64,000 nucleotides of DNA from Mayamaea pseudoterrestris (lineage: Eukaryota), in assembly GCA_027923505.1 (NCBI GenBank), contig BROI01000007.1:558001-622000 (forward strand). The letters run 5' to 3'. Positions 8,008 through 15,848 of this stretch are shown here, one piece after another. Each line of letters opens with the position of its first letter. Position 1 is the first letter of the stretch. The notes beneath the pieces were generated by a model, which saw only the letters and a list, made by a program, of their open reading frames with translations, did no database searches and was not told where the DNA came from. Position numbers and translations under genes: made by a program.

Positions 8008-10174
8008 TCACAGTTGCTTAAACAGATAGGCATGCTCGCAGAGTGCGACAATGTTTGGCCGCAGCGATTGCTCGTAAGTGAGACATGCTTGAATGAATTC
8101 CTTGCCTTGCTCCGACACCTGCGGCTGATCCGGAAAGTGGACATGGTGTGCATTCAACATGGTTTGATCCTTGAGAATGCGATCTTGCGATTGCCCCTCT
8201 CCAAACGGCCGTCTTCCATAGAGCATCTGATAGTATATAGTGCCAATGGACCATACATCTACTTTTGAACTGATGCGAACGTTGTCGTCCGTGACAAAAC
8301 ATTCTGGAGGCAAGTACCAATATGTTCCCGCTCCTTGCGAAGTGAGCTCCATACTCTCGGCCGAGTCGACAGTGTCGACGATCTTACTTAACCCAAAATC
8401 TGTAATCTTGGCATCGCCGGCAACATCAAACAAAACTGTAAAGAAGAATGGTGTGTGAGCCACTACTCTGACACCAATCATTGCTCTCAGTGCATACACA
8501 TCAAACTCACTGTTGCCCGGTTTCAGGTCATAATGGATAATACCCTTACGCGCCCCATCTGCAGAGGGCTGGCTCAAATACTGCATTCCCAATAAAATTT
8601 GGAATAAAATGGCACGGGCATCGCGCTCGGCAAGCGACTTCCTCTCCTTCAGTAAGACGTCCAAGTCGCCACCACCGCAGCACTCCAGAACAGTGGCAAA
8701 TGAATTAATATCAATTTCAAATACATCAAATAATGACACGATCCGCGGATGGCGAACATTCTTGTGAATTTCGTATTCTCGAGAAATATGCTTGGTGTAA
8801 TTTTCCTTCTTGCTGTCGGACCATCGAGGATCAAGCTGATGAATCTTGACGGCGACATCACACAGCTCAACTAGGTCATATGCTTTCCAAACCTCTGAAA
8901 AGCCTCCTTTTCCAAGAAGCGACTGCAGGACATATCGATCATGCAGTTTTGGGCGCGATCGAAAGCGAGAATTATCTTCGCTATTGACGCGCTTGAGCCC
9001 ACGAACATGAGCAGCCTTTTCTAAATTCAGAGCCTGCTCTTCTCGGATCAATTCCTGCTCGCGACGGCTAACGTCCGACAAATGGTATTCCACCGATTCA
9101 AGTGCTTCTGCTGCTTCCAGGCGGCTGTTGATTGCAATTCCACCCACTATTTCAGACTCGTCGTTGCAGTTACCTCGCGAAACTCTCTCCCATGCCTTTT
9201 TAGCCGCTTCCTTTCGCAACTCCAATGTATTGCGCTCCTTCTTAAGCTTTGATTTTGTTTCCAGCAGCGTCTTGGTCGCTTGCCCGTCCTGCCAAACTTC
9301 TACAGTTCGCATACCGACACGCTGGATAACAATCTGCCCCAACCGCGCTCCATTGACTGCCAGATTGGCTCGAACCGCCGCAGCGTCTTGCTCCGCCTGC
9401 TTGCGAATACTTTCCTCAACTACGCGCATTAAACGCGAGACTTCCTGCGCCTGCATTTGCTTGGCCGTCGCCAGTTGATTCTGACAGCGCTCCAAGGAAA
9501 CCGTCAAGTTGGCATGTAGAATGCTTCGATGGTTGCGAATGGCCGAGAGTTGTTCCGTCGTTTCCTTGAGAGTTTGCTCAAGTTCCGTACAATGACGCTG
9601 AAGCAGCTGCAGCTGAGTGCGATCATCACTGCCAGAGGCTGTAGATGAAATTGGTTTGGTGGTTGCGTTGGCAGGGATTAAAGCACGTGGAAGAGTCGAC
9701 TCGCGTAAAGGTGGCTCGTCGACTGGCAAGGGCACGTTAGCCTTGGTACTAGAAGGCTTGAAAAAGTTGGAAATGAGTCGGTTATTAGTTGGTCCCTTGG
9801 TTGTGTTGCGCTTTTTGGAATCGCGTGAATTAGTGGTTGGGCTCGTGGCTGGTAGCACGTCCGTCGGAGCAACTGCATCATTCGTCACGGGAGCGACAAC
9901 TGCAGCTTCCATCGTAGCCTCCGCAGACTTTGCTTGCTGCTGGGCAGCCCGTGATCGCTTGCGAGCTTCCGCCTTCTTTGAGTTATCCTTGGCCGGTGCA
10001 TTCGTTTCAACCTTGATTGTCTTGCCCCCAAGATTCTCCTTGACTGATGGTAAATCAAATTTAACAGGGTTGGCTGGCTTTCGCTTCCTTTTATTTTTCC
10101 CGCTAGTTTCTGCTTCATTCGAACCGTTTGTTGGCGGAGATGGAGATTCGCTGATTTGAACGACAGAAGGTGAC

Positions 10175-10206
<32 letters not shown>

Positions 10207-10563
10207 ACTGCTCAAATGAGCCGTAATCAGAGTGTGCGTACTCGCGTTGGATGCGTCCGCCTCTAAAACGGAGTCACCGCCAGCAACCTTGACCATTTGT
10301 CGAGCTGCTGCCAAGTTAACTTCATGCAATGACGTGGAAAGATTGCTGCGACTTCCAGTGTTGCTGTTGTTACTGCTTCCCATGAGAACAGGCGTATCAA
10401 AGCCAAAGGAATGGACCTGCATGTGCGGGGAATTTAGAGTAGGGGTATCAGAATCATAAGGCTCTGTGAAACGAGCTTCGAGCAATTCTAATTTTTGCTC
10501 CAACGAGACACGGTTGGAAACTGGAGATTGCTTCAGTTGCGGCATGATGTTGCTGTTGACCAT
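8008..10563 (-). CDS. TLK: Tousled-like kinase; one stop-free 75-bp intron at 8436-8510
   Basis: Coiled coil, then LLGKGGFSEVWKAYD, VAVKIHQL, KKENYTKH..REYEIHK, IIHYDLKPGN|ILFD, KITDFGLSK, MELTSQGAGTYWYLPPECF, ISSKVDVWS. Confidence 0.93.
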
Positions 10564-11020
10564 GGCAGATTGCTGATTGCTGATTGCTGGAGGTAACGTC
10601 GCCTTATGGACAATGATTGGTGATTATTAGATAGATAGCTAAGAGATGCGAGCTGTCGTGGCAATCTTGAATGCTATCAATAACAACGCAGACTGCTTTG
10701 TGGCTCTCGTCGCATCATTGTGCGGATGGATTTGACAGAACAAATCGGTTGATCGGAGGCGCGGTTGCCGCGCGCTCGCGGCGGGCGTCCAATGCGAGAA
10801 AAGTCGTGGTGCGACACGAGACAGCATGTTCCTTCATTTTGGCGATGAGGCAGTAATTAATCAAGACTATTCCCACTATATTTGTATGTAATTGCTCGTA
10901 CAGAGATTTTCAGACGTTGAGAGATACTTTATTGATTTAAAAGGGCTCGCACGCTGGATAAATTCCTCGCTGCAACATAAAACGATTGCTTCGGCCGAGC
11001 CATCGAATTACCGACACTAT

Positions 11021-11923
11021 TTACTTGCAACTCTTTGTTGCGTTCATGTCAATGCCACAAACATCCGCCAGCCGAATGAGGTAAATCGTCACATCCGCAA
11101 TTTCCTGGCCCGCCTTGTCGACAAGCTCGGGAGATAGTGGTTGAGCTTCATCCTTGCTCCACTGAAAGAGTTCCGCTAGCTCGCCCAATTCGCCCAAGAG
11201 CGCCAAAAGCAAGCTGCGAGGTAAGTGATACTTGGACCAGCTTCGCTCCGTGGCGAATCGACGAATTGCTGCGGTCAATTCTGGAAGAGCATCGCCGAGA
11301 CTCGCATGCTTGGGCAAAGCGTTTAATGTGACATGTAGTGTCGACTGTCCTTCGTCCTTGGTAATGCCCGTCTCTTTGGAGTATTCCGTGCTATACGAAT
11401 ATATTAAAAGTCAGATCAGAGTTTACTAATGAATGACAAAGATCAAGGCATGAAGCGTAGGAAGTACTTACTACTTGCCAGCCTTGCCGGTGCACAATTC
11501 CGCTGGATACTTTTTTCGATTCAGTTCCATCTTCTTGTAGATACAAGTCGAAAGATCCAATTCCAATCGAGCTGCCGTCTCTTCCAGACCAGTCAGCAGC
11601 TGCGACGTCAATACCGAAAGTTGCGAGCATTCAGCAATCGATCGTCGAGCCTCCTCCGAGACGCCTGCGTCGCTCGTCGAATCCAACGGAACGTTTTCCA
11701 AAAACAAAGCTGACAGCTTGCCAACCAAGACTGAAAGTTGGAAAATGTCATTGCGAATGAGGTGAACTAAATAAGAATCGACAAAATTTTGAAGTGTTGG
11801 CAAAGTCGAGGTCGACGACAACGTTTGATTTTGATGACGAGTTTCTTCATCATTCTTTAACATGTCGTGAACACCACTCAGATGATTGATGCAGACGCTT
11901 GTTGGGGAGGTAGCCGATTTCAT
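11021..11923 (-). CDS. dCTP pyrophosphatase 1 / MazG-like all-alpha NTP pyrophosphatase; intron 11391-11471
   Basis: FATERSWSKYHLPRSLLLALLGELGELAELFQW and QEIADVTIYLIRLADVCGID; exon 1 has KKMELNRKKYP. The splice joins GKAGK-Y-TEYS. Start codon uncertain. Confidence 0.82.
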
Positions 11924-12219
11924 GACCCTAAGGATGGTGCAGTACTGTATTAATGTGAATGAAAAAAGCGAGATCACTTTTTATACCAGTTGTTCTTCCA
12001 TCGTCCGACAGCGCGCCATGGCAAAGCGAAACGCATTGGCTTTCCGTGTCGAAATGTCACACCACCACCAATTAAAATGTCGGACCGGTAACAAAACACG
12101 TATGCGCCGTGCTCGTATCCACAGAAAAAACTGACCGCCAAAGTCAGCCTACAGTAATGAATGGACAATCCTACGGTAGAGCTTGCTTTAGCTGTTCACA
12201 TGCTCCGAAGCAACTCATC

Positions 12220-12232
12220 AAAAGTAATAAAA
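12220..12232 (-). terminator. Putative Pol III terminator (TTTT-attac-TTTT) for the permuted tRNA
   Basis: Two T4 runs on the minus strand, the first starting about 10 nt after G37. Confidence 0.6.
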
Positions 12233-12241
12233 GTATCGTTT

Positions 12242-12322
12242 CATAAGACCAACACTCTGACCACTGAGTTACACGAGCATCGGGTGTGCTCGAGGAGAGG
12301 GTCGAACTCTCGACCATTGGCT
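12242..12322 (-). tRNA. Circularly permuted tRNA-Ile(UAU): 3' half (nt 38-73) at 12322-12287, 8-nt spacer, 5' half (nt 1-37) at 12278-12242
   Basis: Reassembled 73-mer GCTCGTGTAACTCAGTGGTCAGAGTGTTGGTCTTATG+AGCCAATGGTCGAGAGTTCGACCCTCTCCTCGAGCA folds into a full cloverleaf: acceptor GCTCGTG/CTCGAGC, D stem ACTC/GAGT, anticodon stem TTGGT/GCCAA, T stem GAGAG/CTCTC. Anticodon TAT at 12245-12243. Confidence 0.92.
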
Positions 12323-12360
12323 TACTTGAACGTAGTGACGCAAAGACGGCCGTGTTTGGG

Positions 12361-12368
12361 TATATAAA
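12361..12368. promoter_or_regulatory. TATA element (TATATAAA) between the permuted tRNA (-) and LSm2 (+)
   Basis: Lies ~40 nt upstream of tRNA nt 38 on the minus strand and ~95 nt upstream of the LSm2 ATG on the plus strand. Confidence 0.5.
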
Positions 12369-12460
12369 CGCTGACTATTGATTTAAGTAACGCTCCGACA
12401 GCAACATTTGGGTTCTTCACAAACCGCACGATCATTTTACAGGGAGTCCATGACTTGACC

Positions 12461-12845
12461 ATGGTATGTAAGGCTTCTACTGTCACTTCCCTGTGTTTTC
12501 TTCTCCATATTTGATCTTACACTTGGAATCGTTTTTGCTCTTCAGATTTTTGTTTCCTTCTTCAAAACTCTGGTGGGCAAGGAGGTGGCAGTCGAGCTAA
12601 AGAACGACGTTGTATTGATGGGCGTTTTGCATAGCGTGGATCAATACCTTAACATTAAGCTTTTACAAGTACGAGTGGTCAATCCAGAAAAATATCCACA
12701 GCTGACAGCTTTAGAGAACTGCTTTATTCGCGGGAGTGTTGTGCGATATATTCAGATTCCTAGCGAGTTTGTCGACACGGAATTGCTGCAAGACGCTGCT
12801 AGAAAGGAAAACGCGCCTGCCAGTAGTAAGGCCAAGTCTGGGTAG
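12461..12845 (+). CDS. LSM2: U6 snRNA-associated Sm-like protein LSm2; ATG-only first exon, intron 12464-12545
   Basis: M|IFVSFFKTLVGKEVAVELKND..LHSVDQYLNIKL..NCFIRGSVVRYIQIP..VDTELLQDAARKE. Confidence 0.93.
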
Positions 12846-13187
12846 ACAAAGCATGAGCGAGGAGATTGACAGTCGGCTGTTATTCATAGACGACAACCTG
12901 CTGCAGGAGCTACAACATCTGGTCACTGGTGTATTGTTTCTCACAATTTGCCGGAAGATCATTCAAGTATTCTTTGATGATGGTGGTAGTATAAGGCAAA
13001 ATACCGCTTAAAACTCCAAAAAATTACTGTCTGTATGATTACTTGCGTCATTAGTGGTACAACGACCAATTCGCGAACGTGTGTAATGCAAAGAATGCTT
13101 CTGTACGCTACCTCAAATTATATATGAATGTTTGATCTATAAATTACTACTTTCTTGGCAGATGGATGTGCAAAATCCATTTGACTA

Positions 13188-15848
13188 CTACGACTGCAAC
13201 ACTTCAACAGTCAAGACCCAGAACTTTGTGCCGACTGGAAGGCCGTAGGGGTTGGCATCAGTACCAAGCTCACCAGCAACAAGTTCTTCCTGGAAGACAA
13301 TGCGGCCCAAGACGTAGTCAGGCGCGCCCTTGATGCAATCCGTCGACAAAAAGCGATAGGGGCACTTCGTGTGGAACGCAAGGTATGTTCGCTTGCCTCC
13401 AGATCCTCGGCCAGTGGGCATAAACAAGCCAATATCACCAATCTCAAAACTGCTGTGACTAATCTTGTCGCTCAGTCGCTTACTTTCCATTAATGACTGT
13501 TGCCCTTCTTCCTTGGCTAGTCGCACCTGCGCCTTTACAGCGCTGAGTTCCTTACGCAGTGCTGCAACCTCTGCGTCGTCGACAGTTGTTCCGTCCTGCG
13601 CTTTGGCATCATCAATGTATGACCGGGGCGGCTTGCCACCTAGGCGCTCCAATGCTTGACGAAGAACAGCATTCTCATAAGCCAGTGTCTTGGCTTCGGC
13701 GTCGGCTGCTGCTCCGCCGGCTGGATCAAGAATAAGGTCGTTTCCACTTTGGTCTGACGCGCTTACAATCAACTGGTCTTGATTTTGCTGAGCCGCAGCA
13801 GCTAACGCCATCTCGTGGTCACGAACCTGGTGGCTCTCCGTTGTCAGCGTCGAAGCACTACTCACTGGATTGTTATCGTCATTGGCGGCACTGCGCATCA
13901 CTGCATCGGTGAGAGTATCGCCTCTCGGCGACATGCCAACTTCGGGCAGCGCATCTACTTCGTGAGTTGATGGCAGCTGCGGAGTAAATAGTGGTGGAGG
14001 AGAGGCCAGCGTAGGGGCAAATATTTCAAAAAAGGCAGGCATTAAATGACGGCCCGGGCCTCGCAAAAACTTTTCGCGAGCCTTGACTTCGTCGTCGCGC
14101 ATGGCGGCTAGTCGCTCCATCATCGCATTTGAACACGCCGTGACGGCATGGCCAAAAGCACGACGGCGTTGAATCTCGGTAATGAAGCTCCGGTATGAGT
14201 CTGGTAGCTCAGCAACGTGCTCAAGGTGCACCATATTCTCCGACTGCTGCGTCAAGGCATCGCGCAACACCCCGACACTTGAGAGGATACGATGAATCGA
14301 TGATTGTGCAATGCTCACGTCGCGTAAACGATTTTTCATTCGCTTCATGGCATTCGTCTTTGCTTCTGCCACTCGATACATGAACTCCTTCAGTCGCTGA
14401 TCGTCTTCAGCCATGGCTGGTATGAGTCGCTTCGATGACTCGGACATCTCGCGAAACGGAGTGAATGCAGCTTGTACCTGATCATCATTATCTGCATTAA
14501 TCGCATCGATGATCATTCGAACAACCTTCCCATGGTCAGCCGTCAAGGAATCCGAGCGCTCCGATTGTCTGTCTCTGATATCCCTTGCAAAGCCTTCAAC
14601 TTCCGACCACAATGTTTCAATTTCCAATTCGGCCTCGCGATCCAATTTCCCCTCTTGCTCGCGAGTGGCTGGCGTGCCCATTTCGCCAAACGCTTGCTCG
14701 AGCGATTGAAACAAGGTCATAAGGCGCTGATGTGAGTTTGAGCATTGCTGTGCCCAGTTTCTTTCTCGTTCTACGGGGACAGTATCTAGTAACGTTTCCA
14801 TTGAACGACCAGACGCCCTCGCCGTAGACACCAGCGAGGGGTGCAATGGAACTGCAGCCAAATTATTCAAGATCGACTCGAATCGCTGTAGCAAGCTTCC
14901 CTGCGCGGTAATTTTGGCTTGGAAACCAGAGGCAAACTCTGCCCGTGTCCGCGTCGCCGAGTTGAATGTTTCCGAAAGGTTCGAGACTGCAGCACGAAGC
15001 GCTCGCGCCATGACGGCTTGCTCCTGAACGCAAGTTTTACAAGCCGCCAGACGAAGATCTGCGCCATCCGCCAAGGAGCGCCCTTGTACGGAATATAACA
15101 TGAATTGACGCTCGTATGCAGCAAGCGCCTGGTGCAAAGGCGGCGAAGAGACGGGATCGAGCGAAAGCGGACTTGGCCCTGGCGGCTCTTGAGGTACATA
15201 GACATCCATTGGTTCTAAATGGCATGGTGTAGGGTCTGGAGCATGTTCCGACAAGGACTGCTTTGAAAATAAGAATAGTCTGCGAGCGCCAGTACGCTCA
15301 GTTGTTGCAAGTATCTTATGCGGAACTCCAAAATGTTCGGGTATAGGGTCATCTTCCGCATCTCCAAGGCGAAGTGAATTCAAAGTCTCGTCAGATTGCA
15401 AAGTTGAGTCCTTCACCACTTTATATGGTGGCCCTATCAGAAGAATTTGATCGTTTGCAGGAACCGCTGCAGCGAGATGTCCTCGAATATTTGCGACTCT
15501 GGTTTTAATAGAGATCAAAAAATCGCTCGTAAGAAACACAATCACTCCGATCAAACAAACAACAAAGCTTGCAATAGACAACTTTAAAAGCCATATGCGA
15601 AGCAAGCAGTCCAGTCATTTCATTACTTCTATTTAACAATAGACCTCTGCAACTTTCTCCTCCAAGGCGCTCCCTGGAATGCTAACGAGACGTGGAACAA
15701 CCGCTCTATTTGACTCCGATTTTCTCCAGCCCGTTTCCACTTACGTCAATTCCGAAGGATGTAGCGATATTTTATAGGTCGTCCCAGTGCACGCAACTAG
15801 CACTCGGATACTAACTGATTGAGATGCGCTAGGGGACGATGCCATCAT
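13188..15848 (-). CDS. ATG11: Autophagy-related protein 11 (ATG11/RB1CC1-like); intron 15499-15744
   Basis: N-terminal ubiquitin-like segment, ATG17-like coiled coil (YRSFITEIQRRRAF), C-terminal claw region (ISHSSFEIGDIGLF..YVLGRI..NPYGLPVGTKFW). Confidence 0.82.

Follow-up and report, generated by a model that had tools for sequence, protein, structure and literature searches.

A stretch of 64,000 nucleotides from the freshwater pennate diatom Mayamaea pseudoterrestris (hereafter the window; positions are counted from its first letter) contains what looks like a tRNA gene with its two halves in reversed order, which raises the questions (i) whether the halves, once rejoined, make a regular tRNA; (ii) whether the sequences that flank them form a bulge-helix-bulge motif at which a precursor could be spliced; and (iii) whether the complementarity of these flanks reflects selection or chance. 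The gene occupies positions 12237-12332 of the minus strand and reads, on that strand, as a 10-nt leader, the 3' half, an 8-nt spacer, the 5' half and a trailer (Table 1).

Table 1. Coordinates of the permuted tRNA locus, its flanking signals and the divergent neighbour gene in the window
Feature	Position	Strand	Basis or remark
TATA-like box, TATATA	12361..12366	minus	44 nt before A38; putative polymerase III promoter element
Leader strand of outer helix h', CGUU	12329..12332	minus	pairs 4/4 with trailer AACG; covaries across loci
Leader strand of central 4-bp helix H, CAAG	12325..12328	minus	3/4 pairs with C32-A35
Leader UA	12324-12323	minus	sequence reading
3'-site bulge, U-A-A38	12322..12324	minus	geometry; predicted cut 12323/12322
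3' half of tRNA-Ile(UAU), A38-A73	12287..12322	minus	ARAGORN on rejoined halves
Spacer, 8 nt	12279..12286	minus	between A73 and G1; presumably removed
5' half of tRNA-Ile(UAU), G1-G37	12242..12278	minus	anticodon U34 A35 U36 at 12245-12243
5'-site bulge, U36-G37-A	12241..12243	minus	geometry; predicted cut 12242/12241
Trailer, A and AACG (strand of outer helix h')	12241 (A), 12237..12240 (AACG)	minus	pairing, covariation, RNAalifold
U4 run, presumed polymerase III terminator	12229..12232	minus	first run after the gene, 10 nt past G37
Second U4 run	12220-12223	minus	beyond the first
LSM-domain gene, divergent neighbour	12461..12845	plus	start codon 12461-12463, intron 12464-12545, exon 2 12546-12845

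The rejoined tRNA and the splice motif in the window

When rejoined, the two halves constitute a 73-nt tRNA-Ile with anticodon UAU according to ARAGORN, which made the same call (tRNA-Ile(tat), 73 nt) for all nine rejoined sequences, namely that of the window and those of eight related loci with the same half order, which are described below. ARAGORN called no tRNA in the whole 64-kb window and no ordinary tRNA in the unrejoined sequence of the eight related sites, and an Rfam search of positions 11000-13500 gave no tRNA match. A sub-threshold Rfam match to YrlA (Y-RNA-like; E 0.048), located over the permuted T and D arms of the locus, was read as tRNA likeness and set aside. Tandem doubling makes a permuted gene read like an intron-bearing gene; when the window was scanned in this way in 140-nt pieces, the locus was recovered in nine overlapping pieces, and no second type II permuted tRNA with an anticodon-loop junction was found in the 64 kb.

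The cloverleaf of the window tRNA is regular, with a single mismatch in the acceptor stem (U6.U67, at 12273/12293) and with U31.G39 closing the anticodon stem; by eye, U8, A14, G18G19, U33, U54U55C56 and G15:C48 are all present. Mismatches in the acceptor stem recur among the nine permuted loci (U6.U67 in seven, C3.A70 in four), and lie at columns 42/68 and 45/65 of alignment A1, in which the nine sequences are placed in register. In the contiguous relatives L077 and L008 the acceptor stem is, by eye, fully paired. These mismatches may be tolerated, may be edited, or may have to do with the hairpin that closes the acceptor stem in the precursor.

G37 (window position 12242) follows U36 in all nine permuted genes, as it does in contiguous relatives with the loop CUUAUGA, e.g. 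L077, L008 and L118-L125. In tRNAs that read codons starting with A, position 37 is usually a modified A, and G37 after U36 is unusual.

A first-pass annotation, made from the window letters, had described a bulge-helix-bulge formed by leader, anticodon loop and trailer, and its elements are indeed all in place: C32-G, U33-A and U34-A are paired and A35.C is mismatched; the 3-nt bulges U36-G37-A and U-A-A38 are present; and the outer helix AACG/CGUU is fully paired, with U31.G39 at the anticodon-stem side. The motif thus has the strict hBHBh' form, two 3-nt bulges on opposite strands with a 4-bp central helix between them, in which h is the 5-bp anticodon stem (100% of cells paired) and h' is CGUU/AACG. 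Each predicted cut falls past the second base of a 3-nt bulge. The junction between positions 37 and 38 proposed earlier likewise held, in that the predicted join gives the loop CUUAUGA, as in contiguous relatives, the cuts themselves being predicted from this geometry. In the window alone the join could also be written as 38/39, because the trailer too begins with A; it is fixed at 37/38 because the trailer of L116 begins with U.

This geometry is that of a canonical 37/38 intron, whose 3' cut lies 3 nt past the base (-3) to which position 32 is paired. Such a pair is a rule for eukaryotic pre-tRNA substrates, and C32-G(-3) is found in nine of nine loci. The position 32/-3 pairing rule is set out in section 8 of PMC3978253 (accessible part).

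Signals for transcription flank the gene on both sides. The TATATA box is presumed to be a promoter element by analogy with Cyanidioschyzon merolae (PMC3978253, accessible part); a TATA-like motif stands 35-62 nt upstream of A38 in eight of the nine loci, and a T-run of at least 4 is located 5-27 nt past G37 in all nine. The spacer of the window gene holds neither a TATA-like element nor a T-stretch; in the relatives it is 5-14 nt long and not conserved in sequence. Of the features by which Soma 2007 defined permuted genes, those visible in the sequence are found together here: the half order, a short spacer from position 73 to position 1, a cloverleaf, a bulge-helix-bulge, and TATA-like and T-stretch flanks; the circular RNA intermediate and the mature, aminoacylated tRNA of that definition are predicted.

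How often such a motif would arise by chance was estimated by drawing random 10-mers and 5-mers from the window. Only 0.16% of 400,000 draws had the strict geometry, i.e., outer helix 4/4, central helix at least 3/4 and G opposite C32. Folding energies of the single locus were less telling: the 121-nt precursor gave z = -0.94, which is not significant (35 of 200 shuffles fold as well); in the two-strand fold of the window junction, 32 of 200 shuffled trailers and six of eight foreign trailers were at least as good; and for the window, L094 and L116 the duplex energy of a locus's own trailer did not stand out from that of foreign ones. Folding the precursor, a check proposed with the original description, did not select the strict motif: the minimum-energy fold contains the CGUU/AACG helix and lacks the central helix, GUAAG pairing with CUUAU instead. 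The window sequence by itself weakly suggests that the motif is more than chance; that it is so follows from the comparison with the eight related loci.

Related permuted loci and covariation of the outer helix

Metagenome contigs were scanned for a T-loop that has the D-arm and UAU anticodon of this tRNA 19-49 nt behind it, which yielded at least 117 loci. Ordinary contiguous tRNA(UAU) genes lying close behind another tRNA account for 107 of the 119 matches listed. The permuted order was found in at least eight loci (L035, L037, L086, L091, L092, L094, L114 and L116), all on metagenomic contigs and 70-88% identical to the window tRNA. Four other candidates (L060, L073, L099 and L100) gave no ARAGORN call and failed the rejoining test; these are tandem ordinary genes with interrupted or cut 3' parts. 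A scan of prokaryotic genomes gave no match, and a scan of viral contigs gave eight contiguous genes and no permuted one.

All eight genes of the viral scan, and the contiguous tRNA(UAU) genes of the metagenomes, have the anticodon arm GGU-CUUAUGA-GCC with U31.G39. L077, the closest contiguous relative among the matches listed, shares 86% identity with the rejoined window tRNA, and their alignment crosses the join without a gap. As the contiguous relatives have an identical arm, joining G37 to A38 would yield exactly the loop of the unbroken relatives. The contiguous tRNA-Ile(UAU)-like genes of viral contigs L118-L125 and of metagenome contigs L018, L059 and L070 lie in tight tandem tRNA arrays, and some of the large viral contigs with such arrays are labelled giant-virus MAGs.

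In alignment A1 (the window and the eight permuted loci), every cell of the anticodon, T and D stems is paired (100%), and both partners have changed at two, four and one pairs, respectively. The outer helix, which lies outside the tRNA, was assessed in the same way. In strict register it is paired 4/4 in five of the nine loci, each time with a different sequence (leader/trailer CGUU/AACG in the window, AACU/AGUU in L037, ACAC/GUGU in L086, ACGC/GCGU in L091 and GUCU/GGAC in L116), whereas only 2 of 72 mismatched leader/trailer combinations pair fully; the remaining loci have 3/4 (L035), 2/4 (L092), 1/4 (L094) and 0/4 (L114) pairs. Over all loci, 72.2% of outer-helix cells are paired, compared with 43.1% in shuffles, and the covariation score is 0.806, compared with 0.244; none of 500 shuffles was as high by either measure. 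Both-side changes occur at all four pairs, sliding the partner strand by 1-3 columns lowers pairing to 33-56%, and RNAalifold, run without an input structure, predicted the outer helix as well as the four stems of the tRNA.

As positions 32-35 are invariant, the central helix has no scope for covariation. Its leader strand is complementary to 32-35 in 83% of cells, with a competing register (slide +2) at 72%; three or four of the four pairs are present in all nine loci (four of four in L092, L094 and L114), and the G at -3, opposite C32, is invariant throughout.

In three loci (L092, L094 and L114) the strict register of the outer helix is lost, and pairing there calls for a 4-nt bulge, a helix farther out or a relaxed motif. 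At L092 (274-380 and flanks), a distant 8-bp complement can be read directly, which the co-fold lengthens to 11 bp; the TATA box (-62) and the T-run (+27) of this locus are shifted outward together with the helix. Since box, helix and T-run are displaced jointly, the transcription unit seems to track the helix. At L094, an AACA/UGUU helix can be recognised by eye past a 4-nt bulge. Only a relaxed form is found at L114, where a long distal helix, lying beyond a U7 run, is probably outside the transcript.

Some of the permuted loci also share a neighbour with the window gene, where an LSM-domain gene is transcribed divergently from it (Table 1). The permuted gene stands divergently beside an LSM gene in L037 (78% identity over 99 aa) and in L091 (87.5% identity over 24 aa at the edge of the locus), and no LSM gene was found in the 1.4 kb upstream of L035; synteny was judged in these three loci, the flanks of L086, L092, L094, L114 and L116 being too short. 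Compensatory change in orthologous LSM-linked loci had been named at the outset as a sign to look for, and it is what L037 and L091 display, with AACU/AGUU and ACGC/GCGU in place of CGUU/AACG.

We consider the covarying helix, as read from the aligned sequences, to be unusually clear evidence of selection on the splice motif. The initial argument, that complementarity between the flanks speaks for selection, is accordingly borne out by the nine-locus comparison and finds no backing in the single-locus energies. On these comparative grounds, we conclude that the permuted gene with its splice motif is a real, selected feature.

A predicted circular precursor and competing readings

We regard it as very probable that this locus is a permuted tRNA-Ile(UAU) gene whose flanks form an hBHBh' motif, at which the tRNA-splicing endonuclease would cut to give a circular intermediate, the enzymatic steps being assigned by analogy. 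RNA polymerase III would start about 25-30 nt downstream of the TATA box and stop at the U-run, giving a transcript made up of leader, 3' half, 8-nt spacer, 5' half and trailer. This precursor would fold as a cloverleaf in which the spacer closes the acceptor stem, while leader and trailer close the open anticodon loop: leader CAAG would pair with C32-A35 and leader CGUU with trailer AACG, leaving the two 3-nt bulges of the hBHBh' motif. The endonuclease would then cut past the second base of each bulge, and tRNA ligase would join G37 to A38 to form the circle, from which RNase P and tRNase Z would remove the spacer before CCA is added. We infer every one of these enzymatic steps, and the circle, from the permuted tRNAs of Cyanidioschyzon and prasinophytes. 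Genes near the permuted tRNA contain AUA codons, which is consistent with this reading.

The canonical 37/38 intron of tRNA-Ile(UAU) has the same cut sites, the same geometry and the same 32/-3 pair, and leader and trailer stand where the two ends of that intron are. The 'intron' is here open rather than a closed loop, so that splicing would circularise the ends of the transcript instead of excising an internal piece. Leader and trailer probably go back to the two intron ends of a tRNA-Ile(UAU) gene that once had an intron and underwent tandem duplication.

A different placement of the cuts could be envisaged, in which a ruler mechanism, using the mature domain and the 32/-3 pair, sets both sites and the outer helix merely tethers the ends for ligation. 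Consistent with this, G(-3)-C32 is the only contact outside the tRNA that is invariant in nine of nine loci, the outer helix is out of strict register in three of the nine, and the permuted tRNAs of green algae have only a relaxed hBH at 37/38 (PMC3978253, section 8, accessible part). However, the exact register of 3-nt bulge and 4 bp is kept in five of nine loci despite complete turnover of the sequence, and since mere tethering needs no fixed register, its retention speaks against an outer helix that does nothing else. We therefore think this reading unlikely.

Still less probable, to our mind, is that the pairing with the anticodon loop mainly replaces the intron that other eukaryotes need for pseudouridine formation at positions 34 and 36 of tRNA-Ile(UAU), any structure sufficing to join the ends. 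The leader is complementary to C32-A35, including anticodon bases 34 and 35, to the extent given above, and intron-dependent pseudouridylation of tRNA-Ile(UAU) has been discussed for yeast and C. merolae (PMC9602550, accessible part); yet such a role leaves the covarying outer helix and the fixed 3-nt bulges unexplained, and it is compatible with splicing at the hBHBh' motif rather than an alternative to it. That the locus represents a defunct tRNA fragment left by a rearrangement, with fortuitously complementary flanks, as the non-significant folding energy of the single locus and the acceptor-stem mismatches might suggest, is scarcely credible, and it is contradicted by the comparative data: the permuted order in at least eight further contigs at 70-88% identity, compensated stem pairs, conserved synteny, covarying flanking helices, TATA boxes and T-runs.

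With splicing at the hBHBh' motif as the preferred reading, a wider and more tentative proposal can be made, which we offer as a possibility rather than an expectation: pennate diatoms would decode AUA by means of tRNA-Ile(UAU), whose sole gene would be permuted and would have been linked to the LSM gene since before these species diverged. Were the proposal true, a stramenopile would depend on its tRNA-splicing machinery to produce a circular tRNA precursor; cutting and anticodon modification would both require the open 'intron', which would account for its retention; permuted tRNAs would have had an independent origin outside red and green algae; and it would be explained why this isoacceptor is invisible to standard tRNA finders in diatom genomes.

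Comparison with known permuted genes, and genomic surroundings

The published type II layout consists of a TATA-like element, the 3' half, a short intervening sequence, the 5' half and a T-stretch, with a bulge-helix-bulge at the junction as the hallmark of permuted tRNA genes, and the published pathway leads from the splicing endonuclease through a ligase-made circle to RNase P, tRNase Z and CCA addition (PMC3978253, accessible part). The diatom locus matches this anatomy point for point. Table 1 of that review, as accessible, lists 34 genes from Cyanidioschyzon, Ostreococcus, Micromonas, the Bigelowiella nucleomorph and Thermofilum, among which there is no diatom gene and no Ile(UAU).

The genes of Cyanidioschyzon resemble the window gene in their half order, their short intervening sequence (7-31 nt, compared with 8 nt in the window), their 37/38 junction, the bulge-helix-bulge of leader and trailer, the TATA-like box, the T-stretch and a CCA that is not encoded. 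They differ in that the window gene is from a diatom, i.e. a stramenopile, specifies Ile(UAU) and has no additional intron, and in that the circle is predicted here from sequence. In C. merolae itself, tRNA-Ile(UAU) is encoded by an unpermuted gene with three introns (PMC9602550, accessible part).

Permuted genes of the prasinophytes Ostreococcus and Micromonas and of the Bigelowiella natans nucleomorph were described by Maruyama 2010 (reviewed in PMC3978253, accessible part). With a single exception, the genes listed there are of type II with a 37/38 junction, which suits a eukaryotic endonuclease, and like the window gene they have short intervening sequences and an AT-rich upstream region. 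In contrast, they have a relaxed hBH and mostly encode Ser, Leu, Cys and iMet tRNAs, whereas the loci of the diatom type encode tRNA-Ile(UAU) and, in five of nine cases, have a full hBHBh' with a covarying outer helix.

A more distant likeness is that to the crenarchaeon Thermofilum pendens, for which Chan, Cozen and Lowe reportedly described a permuted tRNA-iMet and a permuted tRNA-Tyr in 2011. These two genes share with the window gene a splicing motif at the junction (PMC3218864 and PMC3978253, accessible parts); they differ in having their junction at 59/60, within the T loop, as well as an encoded CCA and an archaeal endonuclease (PMC3978253, Table 1, accessible part). The permuted genes of Auxenochlorella have reversed halves as well and were found by way of an incomplete tRNAscan-SE set, their host, unlike Mayamaea, being a trebouxiophyte green alga (2025 preprint PMC12633428, accessible part).

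Few lineages have so far been credited with permuted tRNA genes: a single red alga, the prasinophytes, the nucleomorphs of chlorarachniophytes, one crenarchaeon and, in the preprint, Auxenochlorella (PMC3978253 and PMC12633428, as far as their accessible text goes). A full-text literature search gave no mention of nuclear permuted tRNAs in diatoms or other stramenopiles, a provisional result that covers texts other than subscription papers and supplements; nor are any mentioned in the accessible parts of a 2026 review of tRNAs in photosynthetic organisms (PMC13578239) and of the PlantRNA 2.0 preprint. Both the type of element and the mechanism have been described before; what appears to be new is the lineage and the isoacceptor.

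A conserved and covarying example from diatoms extends permuted tRNA genes to a major group of secondary-plastid algae, and shows that such a permuted order can outlast the divergence of species while selection maintains its splice motif. Its compensatory variants form a clean natural series with which the demands of a eukaryotic splicing endonuclease on a bulge-helix-bulge could be tested. Since ARAGORN and Rfam are blind to the locus, tRNA sets compiled for diatoms with standard tools probably miss the AUA decoder.

The LSM-domain gene beside the permuted tRNA, a putative LSm2, has a Pfam LSM domain (E 1e-16). Four sequencing runs gave only contigs: two DNA-like ones that are identical to the window and may be its source, one RNA-like contig limited to the LSM mRNA and its intron, and a 151-nt piece at 11977-12127; none lay over the tRNA gene, and the runs yielded no relative. 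A spliced RNA-like contig links 12463 to 12546, which confirms an 82-nt intron directly after the start codon of the LSM gene; the 5' end of the RNA-like contig is at 12433 or farther upstream. A two-codon upstream frame, ATG ACT TGA, starts 11 nt before the LSM start codon (12450-12463).

Farther along the window, an ATG11-like open reading frame extends from 13188 to 15209; its product matches a named protein of Mayamaea pseudoterrestris at 100% identity, its next relatives being diatom proteins (Fistulifera, Nitzschia, Amphora and Bacillariaceae MAGs). On the minus strand, a long open reading frame (8008-10563) has, by eye, a polyglutamine run and a C-terminal part resembling a protein kinase, in which an apparent in-frame insertion may be an unspliced intron.
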